A stretch of 5,488 nucleotides of DNA. Source: a virus. Its lineage: Duplodnaviria; Heunggongvirae; Uroviricota; Caudoviricetes. Shown here in pieces: positions 1 to 5,488 of the stretch. The translations under genes were made by a program, and so were the position numbers. Each line of letters starts with the position of its first letter. The first letter of the stretch is position 1. The notes below the pieces were generated by a model. The model was not told the DNA's origin and did no database searches. It saw only the letters and a program-made list of their open reading frames with translations. The DNA is taken from the IMG/VR virus record IMGVR_UViG_2778261674_000019, positions 1 to 5,488 of that record; one strand, written 5' to 3'.

Positions 1-297
1 CCCGCCAGCAGTGCGATGCGCCAGCATTGCCGCAAATACGGAGGCCGGGGAGTCGTAATACGCCAGCAGTGATTCTCCGTGTGGTGTCAGGTAGTGCAAC
101 GCCAGCCCGTGTGGTGTGAAGTCCACGCGGTAGCAGTCGTCTACTGTGAAATAAAGGGTGTCTGCATTCTCCGGTTTTGTGGTGCGTGCTCTGTTGTCAC
201 GACCACGGATGTAGAGATCAAATAATCCCTGAAGAACGGGAGCCAGACGGGTGTCCTGTGTGCGCACCCATCTTGTGAAGTCATGAGCGTCAATCAT
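1..297 (-). CDS. Hypothetical protein, 5' end only (3' end beyond left edge); sits where an antirepressor would in an immI-like module
   Basis: Open - strand frame from ATG at 297..295 to position 1 with no stop (99 codons visible, MIDAHDFTRWVRTQDTRLAPVLQGLFDLYIRGRDN...). SD-like AAAGAGAA about 8 nt upstream. Same frame and strand as the 76-aa gene, 72 nt downstream of its stop. Not in the ORF track, presumably because no stop is in the window. Confidence 0.5.
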   Translation of the reverse strand, partial: MIDAHDFTRWVRTQDTRLAPVLQGLFDLYIRGRDNRARTTKPENADTLYFTVDDCYRVDFTPHGLALHYLTPHGESLLAYYDSPASVFAAMLAHRTAGG

Positions 298-369
298 GCT
301 GCAATTCTCTTTACTACAGATGTGCGAAGGCCTCCCGCCGCAAGGTGCAGGAAAGGCCCGGAACAGGAA

Positions 370-600
370 TTAATGGAGTTTGTTTTGCTGCTGGAAGAGT
401 TGTTGCAGCTCGCGCAGATCATCCGCCAGATAGCTGAAAACAGAGGCGGAATAGATGTTCGATAGCGCGTGGCTGCGCTCATGCAGCATATTGATGTGCA
501 TGATTTGCGCGACGCGTGATGCGCGGAAAAGTCTACGGTTGATTTCAGTCTGGATGTGACGACGCTCCGCGATAGCGCGGTGCTGTTTGCGGTTTGCCAT
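370..600 (-). CDS. Small basic protein (76 aa, R/H/Q-rich), unknown function; sits where icd would in a P1 immI-like module
   Basis: ORF-track ORF with ATG at 600..598 and SD GAAGAGG (rc of 610..616) about 10 nt upstream. No family recognised from the sequence. Confidence 0.6.
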   Translation of the reverse strand: MANRKQHRAIAERRHIQTEINRRLFRASRVAQIMHINMLHERSHALSNIYSASVFSYLADDLRELQQLFQQQNKLH

Positions 601-608
601 GGTGTTTG

Positions 609-660
609 GCCTCTTCGTTTGTGAGTTTTTGGATACTCACCAACCAGAGTTGAGAATCTC
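609..660 (-). promoter_or_regulatory. Translation-initiation region of the 76-aa gene carrying two putative antisense target boxes (b2 CAAACGAAGA overlapping the SD, a2 UUCUCAAC) separated by a small hairpin
   Basis: b2 is rc of 612..621 and is complementary to the 12-nt loop of the structured domain (695..706). a2 is rc of 649..656 and is complementary to the single-stranded stretch at 682..689. Hairpin GTGAG-N10-CTCAC at 621..640. Confidence 0.4.
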
Positions 661-665
661 GGGGT

Positions 666-741
666 GGCGAGACGTACGGGGTTCTCAACACCGGCAAACG
701 AAGAAACCGGCCCGACCGAAGTCGGCCCCGTACGCCCCACC
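666..741 (-). ncRNA. Candidate c4-like antisense RNA domain (~76 nt)
   Basis: On the - strand, GGUGGGGCGUACGGGG (rc of 726..741) pairs with CCCCGUACGUCUCGCC (rc of 666..681) as a 16-bp closing helix with 3 G-U pairs. Inside are a C(UUCG)G tetraloop hairpin (712..725), a CCGG/CCGG stem with 12-nt loop UUUCUUCGUUUG (691..710) and a single-stranded GUUGAGAA (682..689). The loop and linker are complementary to boxes present twice nearby. Strand and exact ends are inferred. Confidence 0.35.
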
Positions 742-770
742 ATAATTCGTGTGCGAAAAAGACGTGGCAA
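742..770 (-). promoter_or_regulatory. Candidate sigma70 promoter, leftward: -35 TTGCCA (rc of 765..770), 17-bp spacer, -10 AATTAT (rc of 742..747)
   Basis: Hexamer match only; 5/6 for -35 and 4/6 for -10. Would start transcription at the 5' side of the structured domain. Confidence 0.25.
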
Positions 771-781
771 TACAGTACGCA

Positions 782-803
782 CAAAAAAACCGCTGGCGCG
801 GTT
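782..803 (-). terminator. Intrinsic terminator for the leftward early operon
   Basis: On the - strand: AACCGC-GCCA-GCGGTT hairpin (6-bp stem, 4-nt loop) followed by a U-tract of 7 in total. On the + strand it is preceded by A7 with no T-run after it, so it is unidirectional. The stem is short, so strength is uncertain. Confidence 0.4.
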
Positions 804-808
804 GTGCG

Positions 809-836
809 CTTCGTTTGTCAGCAGGTTGAGAATCCC
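809..836 (-). promoter_or_regulatory. Upstream copy of the two target boxes (b1 ACAAACGAAG, a1 GAUUCUCAAC) in the 3' region of the early operon
   Basis: Direct repeats of the boxes next to the 76-aa gene start: CTTCGTTTGT at 613..622 and 809..818; GTTGAGAATC at 649..658 and 825..834. Confidence 0.35.
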
Positions 837-862
837 GGCACCCGTTTTATGAGGTGCAGCAG

Positions 863-892
863 AAATGTAACCTGACTGATTGCGGCATGGCA
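863..892 (-). promoter_or_regulatory. Second candidate leftward promoter: -35 TTGCCA (rc of 887..892), ~18-bp spacer, -10 TACATT
   Basis: Hexamer match only. Would drive a transcript containing a1/b1, the terminator-like hairpin, the structured domain and a2/b2. Confidence 0.2.
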
Positions 893-925
893 AGCGGTTT
901 TTTTGTGTGTGCATGCTCTGATTTC

Positions 926-1225
926 TTACTGGTTCAGAAAAAAATCAAAAACCTTGTCAATGCGTTGCAACAGCTCTTGCTGTATTGCTTCCGGCGTTTC
1001 CGGTTCGCCTGGCGCCTCCAATGTCGCGCAGAAATCATCGATTTCATGATGGAGCGTCAGGCGAATGGCAGGAGCCGTGGTTCTGGCGTGCTCCAGCTCA
1101 TCCAGCAATGCCAGCACCGCAGACGGCGAGAGCATTGCGCGAAATGCCAGTAATTTTTGAGGTGTTGCCATTCGTTGCAGGGCAAATGCCAGTTCGCGTA
1201 GCTTCTGGTGGTTGATGGTGCTCAT
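926..1225 (-). CDS. Ead/Ea22-like prophage protein (99 aa)
   Basis: ORF-track ORF. Start ATG overlaps the upstream stop as ATGA. Contains the motif SPSAVLALLDELE, which I recall as characteristic of Ead/Ea22-like proteins of lambdoid prophages; family call is from memory. Confidence 0.6.
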   Translation of the reverse strand: MSTINHQKLRELAFALQRMATPQKLLAFRAMLSPSAVLALLDELEHARTTAPAIRLTLHHEIDDFCATLEAPGEPETPEAIQQELLQRIDKVFDFFLNQ

Positions 1226-1488
1226 GTTCTGGCTTCCTTCAGTAGCTGGTTAAACATGTGAGTAAGTGGATTGCTACACCCGAACGGCATCGGGTTTACG
1301 TGGTAAGAAGCCTGGCCTCCAGTTTTGCGAGCGCGACCACCTGTGCTGCGGTTTGTTCTGATGACTAAGCCGCCGCGCCAAAGTTGGCGTAACTCAGCAT
1401 TAATGGCTGTGGTTGGAGTATTCAGTGCTGCTGCGATTTCTCCGCCGCTACAACCCGGATGGGTAGCGATGTAGTCCAGAATGGTCAT
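1222..1488 (-). CDS. Probable winged-helix DNA-binding protein (88 aa)
   Basis: ORF-track ORF. ATGA start/stop overlap with the upstream gene. N-terminal ILDYIATHPGCSGGEIAAAL...LRQLWRGGLVIR resembles a winged HTH; Gly/Arg-rich basic tail. Confidence 0.6.
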   Translation of the reverse strand: MTILDYIATHPGCSGGEIAAALNTPTTAINAELRQLWRGGLVIRTNRSTGGRARKTGGQASYHVNPMPFGCSNPLTHMFNQLLKEART

Positions 1489-1688
1489 CTGCGTGGCTCC
1501 TGTACCTGTCGGATAAGATTCACCCGCGCCACGTTGGTGGCGCAGAAATAAGTGCCGTCAGTGAGGTAGATGTGGTGTGCATCCTTTTCCGAACGATGTT
1601 TGTCGATAGTGGTAATCAGTCGTTCGTCGACCTCGTATTCGCGCCCTCTGGAGGTAAAGCGAACGACGGGGAAATGCTTAATTGCCAT
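1485..1688 (-). CDS. Hypothetical protein (67 aa)
   Basis: ORF-track ORF with SD AAAGGGGG about 5 nt upstream of ATG 1688; stop overlaps the next start. Confidence 0.6.
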   Translation of the reverse strand: MAIKHFPVVRFTSRGREYEVDERLITTIDKHRSEKDAHHIYLTDGTYFCATNVARVNLIRQVQEPRR

Positions 1689-1711
1689 TGCGCCCCCTTT
1701 GTCCAGTAACC

Positions 1712-2122
1712 CTATGCGTTAAATACGGTGTGTCGGGCGTCATCAATGAATGCAACTTGAGAGCGCTCTATCAGGCGGAGATTTGTCAGAAGCGCTGATT
1801 CCCTTATGGGGTGAGGAGTGATCAGGTATTTGTCCTGTAATCCGGCAATAATGGTGTATCGCTGTAGCTCTGAGCCAATTGTGTAAATAAGGCGTCCGGT
1901 GTTAGATAAATCCAGTTCGGTGACTGGTTGAGTTTTGAAAAGCGTAAGTTCCGCACCCTGTTCTTCGATGATTTTGGCGGCTTCTGCCGTGACTTTTGCG
2001 ACTATCATTGTGTGGGTCGCGACGTCTATATGATTATTTGCTACGGCTTTTTTCGCTACTTCGCTTTCCATCTTTGAAATTTCTTTCAGTGCTCTGATGA
2101 TACCTTCTTCTTTTGCGTGCAT
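1712..2122 (-). CDS. Hypothetical protein (136 aa)
   Basis: ORF-track ORF with SD GGAGAT about 7 nt upstream of ATG 2122. Follows a 93-bp AT-rich gap. No family recognised. Confidence 0.65.
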   Translation of the reverse strand: MHAKEEGIIRALKEISKMESEVAKKAVANNHIDVATHTMIVAKVTAEAAKIIEEQGAELTLFKTQPVTELDLSNTGRLIYTIGSELQRYTIIAGLQDKYLITPHPIRESALLTNLRLIERSQVAFIDDARHTVFNA

Positions 2123-2215
2123 TTTTGTATCTCCGTTATCTGCGTGTGCGAATACCTCCGTTAATACGGATGGTTTTCACGTTTTCTTATTTAATTTGAT
2201 GTTTTATTTGTATCG

Positions 2216-2329
2216 TTATTCACCAGTGAAAAAACGTTCAATCTTTTTTACTGAATGAATAATTCGCATAATCCCAATGGCGCAGGCCACTGAAATAATC
2301 AGAGCAAGCCATGAAATAAATATACTCAT
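2216..2329 (-). CDS. Small single-pass membrane peptide (37 aa, MSIFISWLALIISVACAIGIMRIIHSVKKIERFFTGE), candidate membrane-active toxin or kil-type peptide
   Basis: Hand-translated; below the ORF-track size cutoff. ATG 2329..2327 overlaps the TGA stop of the upstream gene (2326..2328) as ATGA. Hydrophobic residues 3-21, then a basic tail. Confidence 0.4.
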   Translation of the reverse strand: MSIFISWLALIISVACAIGIMRIIHSVKKIERFFTGE

Positions 2330-2568
2330 GCGATATTCCCCAGCTTATACGGTTCAATATGTTCCCCGCATTCTGCGGCACAGATTAGCTCGGAAAGTTC
2401 GTTAAGTGCATCCAGATCATCAGCGTAAAAAGCCACGTCATACAGACTCCGGATTGCCCTGGTCAATGAGTCACGGGCTGCACGTTCAGCATGAGCGCCT
2501 GATGCACTTAAGCGAAAATAAAAACGCTCAAGTGCTTTGTTAATGAGAGTTTTATATTCTTTGCCCAT
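2326..2568 (-). CDS. Hypothetical protein (80 aa)
   Basis: ORF-track ORF with SD AAAGGG upstream of ATG 2568; 11 nt after the previous stop. Confidence 0.6.
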   Translation of the reverse strand: MGKEYKTLINKALERFYFRLSASGAHAERAARDSLTRAIRSLYDVAFYADDLDALNELSELICAAECGEHIEPYKLGNIA

Positions 2569-2579
2569 CGCAACGCCCT

Positions 2580-2867
2580 TTAATCTGCTTTCTGAATTTC
2601 AGCTTCTGAATCCATACAAATAATTTCGATATATGGTTCATCGCCATTAACCTGACGTGCCTTTTCAGCTTCACTAATGATTTCTCGTACGGTCTGGTAC
2701 GGAAGTTCCACAAGCAGTCGCGTGCCGTTCAGATAAACGTAAGTGGCTTCGTTGGCTCCGTTTTTACCCGCCGGAGCCACTCCATCAATAGCGGATGCGC
2801 GTAATAACAGTTCACCGCGAAAATCAATAAAACGGATAAATACACCTTGTGCATGCTCTTTGGTCAT
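2580..2867 (-). CDS. Hypothetical protein (95 aa)
   Basis: ORF-track ORF with SD AGGTGA 3-4 nt upstream of ATG 2867; 10 nt after the previous stop. Confidence 0.6.
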   Translation of the reverse strand: MTKEHAQGVFIRFIDFRGELLLRASAIDGVAPAGKNGANEATYVYLNGTRLLVELPYQTVREIISEAEKARQVNGDEPYIEIICMDSEAEIQKAD

Positions 2868-2877
2868 AAATCACCTG

Positions 2878-3231
2878 TTATAAATCAGTCTGTTTAATAA
2901 AACTCTGTCCACGCAGCAGACGATCAACCGTGCGAAGCGCTTCGTATAATGTGAAATCCTGCCCGAACTGATTGTCGCCGCTGCTTAGAGCAAAAATGCG
3001 GTTTCCAGTAAACGGATTGCGTGGGCATCTGTGAACCACGATTCCAGCCTTCTCAATCAGCCAGGTATGCTCGCCGATTTGTTTTACAGCGTGGCCATCC
3101 GGCGTTGCGTGTGTATCACTCAGGCTGTAGCGGATGTTGCTGCGTGATGCACTGGTAGCGAAACGGTTAGCATGGCGTTCCGCCCCGTTGCGGAAACGTT
3201 GTTGTGAAGAATTACGCTGTTGCTTATTCAT
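2878..3231 (-). CDS. Hypothetical protein (117 aa from ATG 3231; 120 aa if the GTG at 3240 is used), basic Q/R/S-rich N-terminus
   Basis: ORF-track ORF 2878..3240. The in-frame ATG at 3231 has a better SD (GAGGTG about 9 nt upstream). Confidence 0.6.
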   Translation of the reverse strand: MNKQQRNSSQQRFRNGAERHANRFATSASRSNIRYSLSDTHATPDGHAVKQIGEHTWLIEKAGIVVHRCPRNPFTGNRIFALSSGDNQFGQDFTLYEALRTVDRLLRGQSFIKQTDL

Positions 3232-3242
3232 TTTTTGCACCT

Positions 3243-3449
3243 CTACCCGATAAACCAGATGACAAACACCATGATCATTGCCCCAATGGCAGCCGGAAAA
3301 AGACCTCTGGCATAAGCAGTGATGTATTCAACATTGAGAGCCATAAAGCGTTCCTCATACCCTGTTAATTTGCGAAGAAGCCAAATCACTACCACGCCCA
3401 CTTCAAAAAGAACGAGGGTCAAAATGATATTGGTGATGTTGTTGGTCAT
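3243..3449 (-). CDS. Small two-helix membrane protein (68 aa)
   Basis: Internal ATG (3449..3447) of the track ORF 3243..3698; the upstream part of that ORF overlaps the cox-position gene out of frame. Two hydrophobic helices (NIILTLVLFEVGVVVIWLL and LFPAAIGAMIMVFVIWFIG). Starts 10 nt after the previous stop; SD is weak and distant (GAAGG at -17). Confidence 0.5.
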   Translation of the reverse strand: MTNNITNIILTLVLFEVGVVVIWLLRKLTGYEERFMALNVEYITAYARGLFPAAIGAMIMVFVIWFIG

Positions 3450-3459
3450 TTTTGTGTGT

Positions 3460-3981
3460 TTAGTTGCCTTCGCTGCTTTTGAGTCGCTCCAGCTTTGAGC
3501 TTCTACCCATATAAACCCGTTTTCCGTTAACGGTCTGGCAGTCTTCTTTGTCGGCTGGAGAGAACTTTCTTTTCTGGCGGTCATACGTCCAGTAACTTTT
3601 CCAGTTGTGCCATTCTGGGGGCTCGTACTCTGGTAGCTCATCAGCCAACTTGTCCCACTCTTTGGCGTTAAACCACCATACTCCGTCTGAGTTTTCATCT
3701 TCTGGGTTTGTGCGCGTTTTGTGTCCCGGCATTTGACCGCGATGAATGGCTACGCGCAGTGCAGATTTTGTTAGGCCAATATATGCCGCGCCTTTTTCCA
3801 GAGAGCAAAGCCCGGCGATCGGACCATCCAGCCGTAAAGTCGCTCCTTTTTTGTAGGAGCGCTTTTTCTTGTTTTCTTCGTGTTCGTCGTCGTTGGCGGC
3901 ATCAATGGATCCGCTGAGTGTGTCACTTTCCTGAAGTGGTTGGTGGTCAGATAACTCTTTATCGGCAATGAAGTCCCGCAT
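3460..3981 (-). CDS. Excisionase-family HTH DNA-binding protein in the cox/apl position (173 aa)
   Basis: ORF-track ORF with strong SD AAGAGGA about 6 nt upstream of ATG 3981. Central segment GAAYIGLTKSALRVAIHRGQMPGHK...DGVWWFNAKEWDKL resembles Xis/AlpA-type HTH domains. First gene of the operon divergent from the repressor. Confidence 0.65.
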   Translation of the reverse strand: MRDFIADKELSDHQPLQESDTLSGSIDAANDDEHEENKKKRSYKKGATLRLDGPIAGLCSLEKGAAYIGLTKSALRVAIHRGQMPGHKTRTNPEDENSDGVWWFNAKEWDKLADELPEYEPPEWHNWKSYWTYDRQKRKFSPADKEDCQTVNGKRVYMGRSSKLERLKSSEGN

Positions 3982-4084
3982 TTGTTATCCTCTTGCGTTG
4001 GTGCGCTTGTTGCGCCTTGTGATGGTTTGTTTTGGTTTGTTTTCTTCACCGTGTGGTGAAGAGCGAAAAGAGGATACTCATCGT
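3982..4084. promoter_or_regulatory. Divergent lysis/lysogeny switch region (Pe-like and Pc-like promoters with operators)
   Basis: 103-bp gap between divergent start codons. Tandem imperfect repeats TTGGTGCGC/TTGTTGCGC (3998..4015), perfect tandem GGTTTGTTTT x2 (4024..4043), palindrome TCTTCACC-GTGT-GGTGAAGA (4043..4062), and inverted AAGAGGATA SD boxes at each end (3986..3994 rc, 4068..4076). Promoter hexamers not confidently placed. Confidence 0.6.
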
Positions 4085-4426
4085 ATGGTGAACATGTCAA
4101 GAGATTACGCCAAAAAACTAAAGGCGATCAGAAATGCGGAAAAACTTACACAATCTCAGTTTTCGCAAGTAACGGGGGTTTCTGTAGGGACTATAGGAAA
4201 TTATGAGTCTGGATATAAACCTGCGCGAATTGAGGTTGTAGAAAAAGTAATCCAGGTCGAGCGATTCGAAAAATACACTATGTGGATACTTCACGACAAA
4301 ACATTTCCCGCTGCCGGGCAGGTTGCTCCGGCTCTCTCTCTTGATGGCTCTATTCAGTCGGAGGGCGATCAGGTTTCAATCGGCATTACCCAAAAATCAC
4401 CCCGATCAGGCCGCAATGTTGGCTGA
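4085..4426 (+). CDS. P2 C-like immunity repressor, HTH (114 aa)
   Basis: Internal ATG of track ORF 3968..4426, with SD AAGAGGA (4068..4074) 10 nt upstream. Resembles phage P2 repressor C as I recall it (KYTMWILHDK, AGQVAPAL). Directly upstream of and co-directional with int, as in P2. Confidence 0.8.
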   Translation: MVNMSRDYAKKLKAIRNAEKLTQSQFSQVTGVSVGTIGNYESGYKPARIEVVEKVIQVERFEKYTMWILHDKTFPAAGQVAPALSLDGSIQSEGDQVSIGITQKSPRSGRNVG

Positions 4427-4495
4427 CGCTACACATTGAGCGAATTACATCTCGCAAGGAGTGTTTAGTTAATTTATCCGTTGGAGGGGCTAATC

Positions 4496-5488
4496 ATGTC
4501 GATTAAGCAACTCAAAGACGGACGTTATCAGGTTGATGTAAGGCCTCAGGGTGCGGAAGGAAAGCGGATTCGAAAAATCTTCACCCTGAAATCAAAGGCT
4601 CAGGAGTTTGAGAAGTATGTGTTACAGAACTTCCATGACAAGCCATGGCAGGCTAAGCCAGCTGATCAGCGGCGATTATCAGAGTTACTTGATGCGTGGT
4701 GGATGCTTGACGGGCGTAATCAGGCTTACGGGGATAGCTACAGGGTCAGGTTAGGGAAGGTTATTCGTGAAATGGGGGATCCTCGTGCCAGTCAGATGAC
4801 GCGAAAATTTATGCTCGAGTATCGGTCAGAGAAATTACAGGCCGGATTAATGCCGTCCAGTATTAATCGTGACTTATGCGTTCTGTCTACCATGTTCACG
4901 GTGCTGATTGAAGCTGAGGTCTTTCACAACGCGAACCCTGTACGCGGTATACGCAAGCTGAAAGTTCAGAACACAGAGATGGCCTTTCTTTCTGATGATG
5001 AGATTGAGCGGCTTCTTGAGCGGCTGGAGGGGGATGCGCGTCGTGTTGCCATTCTGTGTCTTTCTACTGGTGCCCGATGGAGTGAAGCATCAGAACTACG
5101 TGGAGAGCATATCGTTGGCAACCGGGTTACGTTCTTTAACACCAAAAACGGAAAATCCCGTTCGGTTCCTGTGGCGGATTCGGTTGTGCCTCTGATTAAA
5201 ACCCGTCGAACGGGGTTGTTGTATCAGGTTGATTATCTGAAGTTCCGGGAGATTCTTCAGGAGGTGAAACCGGATTTACCGAAGGGGCAGGCTACGCATG
5301 TCATGCGTCATACATTTGCCACACACTTTATGATGAATGGCGGAAATATTGTTACGTTGCAACGAATCCTGGGGCACGCAACGATTCAGCAAACAATGAC
5401 GTACGCTCATTTTTCGCCGGACTTCTTACAGGACGCGATCAACTTTAATCCGCTGGCTGAAAGTGTCCATAAACTGTCCATCGATTAG
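4496..5488 (+). CDS. int: Tyrosine recombinase, phage P2 Int family (330 aa)
   Basis: ATG at 4496 with SD GGAGGGG 6 nt upstream; the track's TTG at 4481 is less likely. Strong resemblance to P2 Int (MSIKQLKDGRYQVDVRP..., ILCLSTGARWSEA, HVMRHTFATHFMMNGGNIVTLQRILGH, TMTYAHF with the catalytic Tyr). Stop TAG is the last codon of the window. Confidence 0.95.
   Translation: MSIKQLKDGRYQVDVRPQGAEGKRIRKIFTLKSKAQEFEKYVLQNFHDKPWQAKPADQRRLSELLDAWWMLDGRNQAYGDSYRVRLGKVIREMGDPRASQMTRKFMLEYRSEKLQAGLMPSSINRDLCVLSTMFTVLIEAEVFHNANPVRGIRKLKVQNTEMAFLSDDEIERLLERLEGDARRVAILCLSTGARWSEASELRGEHIVGNRVTFFNTKNGKSRSVPVADSVVPLIKTRRTGLLYQVDYLKFREILQEVKPDLPKGQATHVMRHTFATHFMMNGGNIVTLQRILGHATIQQTMTYAHFSPDFLQDAINFNPLAESVHKLSID

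Follow-up and report, generated by a model that had tools for sequence, protein, structure and literature searches.

What does the segment 601..893 encode on the minus strand of a 5,488-nt stretch of caudoviricete DNA (Duplodnaviria; Heunggongvirae; Uroviricota; Caudoviricetes; IMG/VR record IMGVR_UViG_2778261674_000019, positions 1 to 5,488; hereafter the window, whose coordinates are used throughout), and which genes does it control? An earlier note, made from the sequence alone, had seen in this segment an antisense-RNA switch of the P1 c4/immI or IsrK type, acting as a second, RNA-based layer of control, and Rfam matches, the geometry of the locus and covariation across related modules support that view. 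We interpret the segment as an IsrK–C4 antisense-RNA control cassette of the P4 seqA–CI–seqC type, situated in the early operon of a P88-like P2-type prophage, and put the probability of this interpretation at roughly 0.8. The cassette and the genes that follow it all lie on the minus strand, and features are given in that direction (from high to low coordinates) unless another order is more convenient.

The centre of the cassette is a C4/CI-type antisense-RNA gene (660..747). The Rfam C4 model (RF01695) matches 747..660 over its entire length (model positions 1–87 of 87) with 79.2 bits (gathering score, 45; E = 6e-15), a higher score than the same model gives to either P4 CI RNA (74.9 bits) or P1 c4 (68.8 bits). 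For the same 747..660 segment, RNAfold returned a minimum-energy fold of −48.6 kcal/mol (z = −4.67; 0 of 200 shuffles were as stable) that equals the structure of the Rfam model. A 17-bp closing helix (742..726 paired with 681..665) encloses a UUCG tetraloop hairpin (725..712), a second hairpin (711..690) with a 12-nt loop and a single-stranded linker. Word search, Rfam and RNAfold together place the two antisense elements in this fold: b′ is the 12-nt hairpin loop UUUCUUCGUUUG (706..695), and a′ is the 8-nt linker GUUGAGAA (689..682). This is the architecture that the earlier note had described: strand reading, word search and RNAfold all recover its UUCG hairpin, its hairpin with a 12-nt loop and its single-stranded linker, and two of the checks that it had proposed, an Rfam search and a fold, gave the C4 family (with an isrK match upstream besides) and the expected shape. 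Its 76-nt domain (666..741) agrees to within 1 nt with the structured domain at 742..665, whereas the closing helix, put at 16 bp, has 17.

The fold is maintained among relatives. Across 31 distinct homologues, the 27 pairs of the Rfam C4 structure are paired in 99.9% of cases, against 33–47% in controls in which the structure was slid by 1–3 columns, and 11 of the 27 pairs show double compensatory changes. Since both small hairpins were built into the search pattern, the closing helix alone provides an unbiased test of compensatory change, and there 8 of 17 pairs show it.

Sequences complementary to the two exposed elements lie on both sides of the C4 domain. Upstream, box a1 (GAUUCUCAAC, 834..825, with the core UUCUCAAC at 832..825) is complementary to linker a′ and box b1 (ACAAACGAAG, 818..809) to loop b′. 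Downstream, box a2 (658..649, the same 10-mer as a1, with its core at 656..649) begins 7 nt past the 3′ end of the closing helix (665), and box b2 (622..610) comprises a second copy of the b1 10-mer at 622..613 that runs into the Shine–Dalgarno (SD) sequence GAGG (613..610) of a 76-codon gene with its ATG at 600..598, overlapping the ribosome-binding site. Placing the second target set over the ribosome-binding site of a small gene, as the earlier note did, was therefore correct; the words that it had compared need adjustment. Its a-target sites (649..656 and 825..832) stand, and the word that they share is longer than the core given there. Its b-target, CAAACGAAGA, is present at 612..621, but the supposed second copy at 809..818 reads CAAACGAAG and then C, and the word common to the two sites is the 10-mer of b1 and b2. 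Each of the two shared 10-mers is found twice on the minus strand, compared with an expectation of 0.01–0.03, and two matches were reached in 0 of 200 dinucleotide shuffles.

On the upstream side, a1 is predicted to pair with the linker at −11.4 kcal/mol and b1 with the loop at −10.8 kcal/mol, the latter value being reached by 4 of 500 shuffles. At the downstream b box, all 12 nucleotides of the loop can pair with b2 plus the SD sequence GAGG (−13.8 kcal/mol), an energy reached by 0 of 500 shuffled targets. The boxes keep fixed offsets: the end of the b2 core is 9–13 nt from the ATG across the P2-like class, and a2 stands at the same offset in related modules.

We followed the loop, the linker and both box sets through at least 231 related modules with at least 61 distinct loop/linker specificities, collected from phage P88, three bacterial genomes, P4 and two scans of viral contigs (structural pattern with 4 nt between CTTCGG and GCCGG), matching the boxes by longest-perfect-complement statistics. 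Among the 61 specificities, a perfect complement of at least 7 nt to the loop is present in 85% of its own upstream flanks and 90% of its own downstream flanks, compared with 3–4% of the flanks of other specificities; for the linker the values are 98% upstream and 98% downstream, again compared with 3–4%. Box a1 co-varies with the linker in 60 of 61 specificities and b1 co-varies with the loop, and this pattern was already evident in the first 26 specificities. Individual elements illustrate the changes: P88 combines the loop GUUCUGUAGUUG with boxes CAACUACAG, and a Salmonella prophage combines the loop GAUCUCUUGUAG with boxes CUACAAGAG, with matching changes in linker and a boxes in both. Loops reassort independently of linkers (12 loops and 7 linkers in the first sample of P2-like elements alone). 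The covariation that the earlier note had suggested looking for is thus present, loop and linker changing together with both box sets. Such three-way covariation is what selection on determinants of immunity specificity should produce, and it excludes chance and protein coding as explanations.

The upstream boxes belong to an RNA of their own, with a predicted promoter and a terminator, that the earlier note had left undescribed. The Rfam isrK model (RF01394) matches 857..783 over its full length with 62 bits (threshold, 50), identifying an IsrK-type leader RNA equivalent to P4 seqA and P1 c4-a1b1; the model also matches the P4 seqA region and P88. Read along the isrK match, the leader consists of a 5′ hairpin (857..838), a second hairpin in which box a1 sits, and box b1, single-stranded directly before an intrinsic terminator (803..781; stem-loop 803..788 followed by a U7 tract) that was found by a terminator scan and lies within the isrK match. 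The terminator sequence CCGCGNNNGCGG plus T7 is kept in 60 of 60 distinct P2-like modules, and P4 timm and the IsrK terminator are its analogues. A consensus scan predicts a sigma-70-type promoter at 893..864 (−35 TTGCCA, 893..888; 18-nt spacer; −10 TACATT, 869..864), from which transcription would start near 857, that is, at position 1 of the isrK match; the hexamers and spacing of this promoter, known as a match to the consensus, are kept in 52 of 60 distinct P2-like modules. The cassette looks self-contained, because homology with P88 begins just upstream of the −35 hexamer while the preceding genes differ. A second promoter-like site (770..742; TTGCCA, 17 nt, AATTAT) lies directly before the C4 closing helix and is probably not functional, as its start would fall inside the helix and its −35 hexamer is not conserved in P88 (TCGCCA).

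The gene whose SD sequence is overlapped by b2 (600..370) encodes a 76-amino-acid homologue of P4 epsilon, the helper-derepression protein. It matches the Pfam family PF25738 ‘Derepression’ with 31.4 bits (cut-off, 27; P4 epsilon itself, 170 bits), and BLASTP aligns it with P4 epsilon at 29% identity over 66 amino acids (E = 1e-8). ‘Derepression protein’ is also the annotation of its homologue in P88 and RefSeq, and among sequenced phages the protein is confined to the P88 group. It shows no similarity to P1 Icd, and we rejected the gene as an icd equivalent on this lack of homology. The second gene of the unit (297..1), assigned from the context in P88 and an Escherichia coli chromosome, encodes a hypothetical protein that is cut by the window edge and has 129 amino acids in relatives. 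The 129-amino-acid protein belongs to PHROG 3237, a family of unknown function, as does the epsilon-like protein to a PHROG of unknown function; it was compared with P4 orf151 as a possible relative and found to be unrelated. An NCBIfam search of the proteins gave no match for any of them. In the annotated contexts of P88 and the E. coli chromosome, the replication endonuclease gene A comes next, outside the window, and the order C4, epsilon-like gene, gpA recurs in 47 of the first 91 modules.

The window comes from a P2-type prophage of the P88-like kind (Xuanwuvirus), of which it covers the early region on the Cox side. Genes for a Cox-family protein, small proteins, a MarR-type protein and an Ead-like protein are followed by the RNA module, the 76-amino-acid gene and the hypothetical gene; the repressor is a homologue of P2 C (PDB 2XCJ/2L49, E = 7e-15); and an integrase gene occupies 4481..5488. 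Besides its P2-type int, C and cox, the element has in relatives a nearby portal gene. The earlier note had supposed a P2-type element that already has a C repressor, and both the P2 C homologue and Cox are indeed there. Of 5,426 complete E. coli genomes, 1,423 contain similar DNA.

Two further observations concern this genomic setting. In a related P2-type prophage integrated in an E. coli chromosome (L002, 1734..3009), ParM- and ParR-like plasmid partition genes stand right after gene A, which may point to an ability to persist like a plasmid, as in P4 or P1. A 226-kb contig labelled Vagococcus sp. (NZ_JBQPOM010000071.1) carries the enterobacterial cassette in full, with the epsilon-like gene, at 89% identity; this Firmicute-labelled copy is most likely contamination or a mislabelled assembly.

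The arrangement suggests a mechanism along the following lines. The constitutive-looking promoter at 893..864 would start a leader RNA that bears a1 and b1, and most transcripts would end at the terminator (803..781), yielding an IsrK-like RNA of ~75 nt. Read-through RNA would hold the C4 domain (742..665), from which RNase P and 3′ trimming may produce a stable RNA of ~77 nt, by analogy with P1 c4 and P4 CI. This RNA would display the 12-nt loop b′ and the 8-nt linker a′ and, acting in trans, could pair through them with a2 and b2 on every transcript entering the region, be it initiated at the promoter of the module or at the early promoter on the Cox side. Pairing at a2/b2 would hide the SD sequence of the epsilon-like gene and block its translation; the untranslated RNA would be prone to Rho-dependent termination, keeping the epsilon-like gene, the next gene and gene A off. 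C4 may also pair with a1 and b1 on nascent leaders and reinforce termination, as in P4, and excess leader RNA could titrate C4, as proposed for IsrK. The epsilon-like protein, once made, would probably antagonize a P2 C-type repressor. We infer that the cassette provides a second, RNA-based immunity layer beside the P2 C-type repressor protein of the prophage, with its specificity set by a′ and b′.

The studied systems offer precedents for several of these steps. C4 RNA is a substrate of RNase P (PMC11143913), and for P1/P7 the mature ~77-nt C4 is described as arising through RNase P plus 3′ trimming and acting in trans (Hartmann 1995, in the account given by PMC11143913). In P4, CI pairs with seqA and seqC and prevents expression of the replication genes (PMC4825925), and full repression of ant in P1 needs C4 (PMC8198154). 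In Salmonella, STnc1160 is a ~80-nt RNA processed from IsrK read-through transcripts (PMC4825925).

Several points weigh against the proposed C4 antisense mechanism. The read-through RNA (585..857) is predicted to favour a fold in which a1/b1 pair in cis with a′/b′ and the C4 closing helix is open. The two forms are nearly bistable in the window (cis form, −108.0 kcal/mol; form with native C4, −104.9 kcal/mol; gap, 3.1 kcal/mol), and of 21 P2-like specificities, 19 have the cis form as their energy minimum (gaps, 0–12 kcal/mol). Because the cis fold is preferred, the release of a free, trans-acting C4 is not guaranteed, and IsrK-type logic as in Gifsy-1 may dominate. The folding energy of the leader alone is indistinguishable from that of shuffles (z = −0.51); the epsilon-like protein is just 29% identical to its P4 counterpart; a 72-nt gap separates its gene from the next, with no sign of translational coupling; and the suggested polarity onto gene A is argued from gene order. 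Our literature search turned up no study of expression, RNA processing or genetics in this element or in other P88-like phages.

As the cis-paired read-through fold is the energy minimum, positive riboregulation of the IsrK type is a live rival or complement to antisense control by C4. Under such a scheme, C4 would act in cis and lock the read-through mRNA in a translationally inactive state, and the terminated leader (857..783) would act in trans, open the fold and activate translation of the epsilon-like gene. We consider this unlikely to be the main mode, while giving it real weight: the isrK match is above threshold and comes with its terminator, the cis a1/b1:a′/b′ fold predicted for the window and 19 of 21 specificities is the analogue of ‘structure A’ (PMC4825925), and in Gifsy-1 the supply of IsrK in trans raised anrP translation ~140-fold (PMC4825925). 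Activation in Gifsy-1, however, needs a translated orf45 with a stop that overlaps the anrP start, and here no open reading frame (ORF) ends at the ATG of the 76-amino-acid gene; b2, moreover, directly overlaps the SD sequence of the regulated gene, as in P1 and P4. The difference between the folds is also small (0–12 kcal/mol; 3.1 kcal/mol in the window) and was calculated from energies that leave co-transcriptional folding and RNase P cleavage out of account. The two modes are not mutually exclusive.

Far less credible is the view that the stretch is protein-coding, as an ‘Ash family’ or other ORF, with incidental RNA-like features. ORFs are found on both strands, and two of them, of 206 amino acids (914..294) and 79 amino acids (784..545), cross the region; the longer has a weak Pfam Phage_ASH match (20.4 bits, below the cut-off of 26), RefSeq calls a neighbouring pseudo-coding sequence ‘ash family protein’, and one sense frame is free of stops across C4 in 57 of 57 distinct modules. 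Two antisense frames are mostly open too, however, as expected for 88 GC-rich bases, and variable positions are distributed 16/17/16 over the three codon phases, without periodicity. Substitutions are compensatory in the helices and co-vary with distant boxes, which protein constraint leaves unexplained, and the NCBIfam search found nothing. Across C4, where the earlier note had named a conserved coding frame as the outcome that would speak against an RNA, we found no coding signature. As an observation in its own right, the 206-codon ORF (294..914) is unusually long, staying open through the leader, C4 and, in another frame, the whole epsilon-like gene; it is probably spurious.

The Phage_ASH family itself bears on this question. 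PF10554 matches the obsolete P4 ‘cI 137-aa’ ORF exactly over CI RNA plus seqC (~8330..8521, E = 4e-16), both of which are experimentally known, and its region in the window is 653..869, below threshold on the 206-amino-acid ORF. From this exact coincidence in P4, Phage_ASH appears to be a translation of the IsrK–C4 RNA module, not evidence of a protein. A large survey of P4-like satellites took PF10554 to mark “epsilon” (PMC8628076), whereas the true epsilon family is PF25738; RefSeq ‘ash family protein’ labels, and PF10554 as an epsilon marker, may be tracking the RNA gene.

That the prophage carries the cassette as an inactive relic, as might be supposed from a view of 5.5 kb of an element that could be defective, is scarcely tenable when all four boxes pair without internal mismatch (8–10 Watson–Crick pairs each), C4 folds without mismatch, the promoter, terminator and SD sequence are intact, similar DNA recurs in 1,423 of the 5,426 complete E. 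coli genomes, and at least 61 specificities have kept their three-way complementarity through diversification, which calls for ongoing selection.

Among known systems, the P4 immunity cassette (seqA–CI RNA–seqC) comes closest, nearer than P1 immI. P4 yields the same two Rfam matches in the same order and orientation (isrK on seqA and C4 on CI), has its terminator right after the b box, carries a box pair on each side of the RNA with the downstream b box running into an SD sequence, and has epsilon downstream, in a unit closed by replication genes. The hosts differ, the window belonging to a complete P2-type phage and P4 being a satellite, and the gene set of P4 satellites (alpha primase; sid, psu and delta) is lacking in the window element. 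The replication gene here is the rolling-circle endonuclease A rather than the alpha primase; the epsilon-like gene is the first after the RNA, whereas another ORF intervenes in P4; the gene after the epsilon-like gene is unrelated to P4 orf151; and the spacer between leader and RNA measures 36 nt, compared with ~108 nt in P4. The a′/b′ specificities of the P4-like and P2-like classes differ, with no overlap in our sample.

With the P1/P7 immI region, the cassette shares the Rfam family and a near-identical closing-helix sequence on both the 5′ and the 3′ side. The order and spacing of a1, b1, the RNA, a2 and b2 match the annotated P1 sites, with b2 just before the first gene. The geometry drawn from P1 by the earlier note (a1 b1, c4, a2 b2) thus stands, whereas its icd and ant downstream do not, their places being taken by the epsilon-like gene, the hypothetical gene and gpA; neither icd nor an Ant-type gene is present in the window. 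Both units would control derepression of the main protein repressor, a role known for P1 Ant (PMC8198154) and proposed for the epsilon-like protein. The leaders differ as well: for that of P1 the best model is c4-a1b1 (RF03163), with isrK giving a weak 35 bits, whereas that of the window is matched by isrK and not by c4-a1b1. The P1 promoter is under a C1 operator, whereas no operator was identified in the window.

The Gifsy-1 locus resembles the window in its isrK-family leader, its leaky terminator, the C4-like ~80-nt STnc1160 produced from read-through and an anti-repressor-type gene (PMC4825925), as well as in the predicted cis pairing between leader and C4 element. It differs in that the window has no coupled ORF of the orf45 type (the 79-amino-acid ORF ends at 545 and the 206-amino-acid ORF at 294, in other frames), that the gene regulated here is the epsilon-like gene rather than that for AnrP, and that the prophage is P2-type rather than lambdoid. 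Barquist et al. (2013) named the ‘IsrK-C4 immunity system’ and equated it with P4 seqA/CI (PMC3632133). In the literature on P88, Xuanwuvirus and the term ‘derepression protein’, we found no paper that describes the cassette in P88-like or other P2-type phages.

Two sets of side observations emerged from the collected modules. Some contigs that are neither P2-like nor P4-like carry two or three complete C4 modules in tandem, ~850 bp apart and with different specificities (L061, at 7050 and 7919; L127, at 9238 and 10083; L138, at 3164, 4024 and 4872; L148, at 4057, 4917 and 5764), and one of the L138 copies has the b2 box of another specificity, mismatched to its own loop. Separately, reverse complementarity is frequent between the a′ linkers of different lineages (6 of 78 pairs with at least 6 nt, compared with 0.55 expected; 0 of 2000 shuffles), and b′ loops show no such mutual complementarity. 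Between P2-like and P4-like linkers, 4 of 35 pairs are complementary, compared with 0.32 expected. The commonest satellite linkers in the sample, UUUCCAC and UUCUCAC (the latter that of P4), are the reverse complements of GUGGAAA (the P88-type linker) and UUGAGAA (that of the window), two of the three commonest P2-like linkers. The shared descent of linkers reduces these pairs to ~2–3 independent events.

The P2 family, including the P88-like phages, has members that act as helpers for P4-like satellites. With reverse-complementary linkers, the CI RNA of a satellite therefore resembles the a-box target of the helper, and vice versa. A speculative and improbable reading is that the helper's C4 RNA and the satellite's CI RNA act on one another by pairing or as decoys, coupling derepression by RNA beside the protein route from epsilon to C; in a related reading, of the same low standing, the epsilon-like protein is the phage's own anti-repressor or is aimed at rival P2-type prophages.

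The system itself is known, being a textbook case of which Rfam recognizes the present copy, so that the result extends it to another phage family and does not overturn current understanding. For annotation, 601..893 of P88-like prophages would be better labelled as two RNA genes plus their target sites than as hypothetical or “Ash family” coding sequences, a change that would reach the similar DNA in about a quarter of complete E. coli genomes. P88, which is inducible and sequenced, offers a tractable model. For the biology of the family, the cassette points to a lineage of P2-type phages in which an RNA-based immunity layer would gate an epsilon-type derepression protein and the replication gene, and to a control module common to this lineage and to the P4 satellites that use P2-family helpers, which exists in many heteroimmune specificities through the independent reassortment of a′ and b′.

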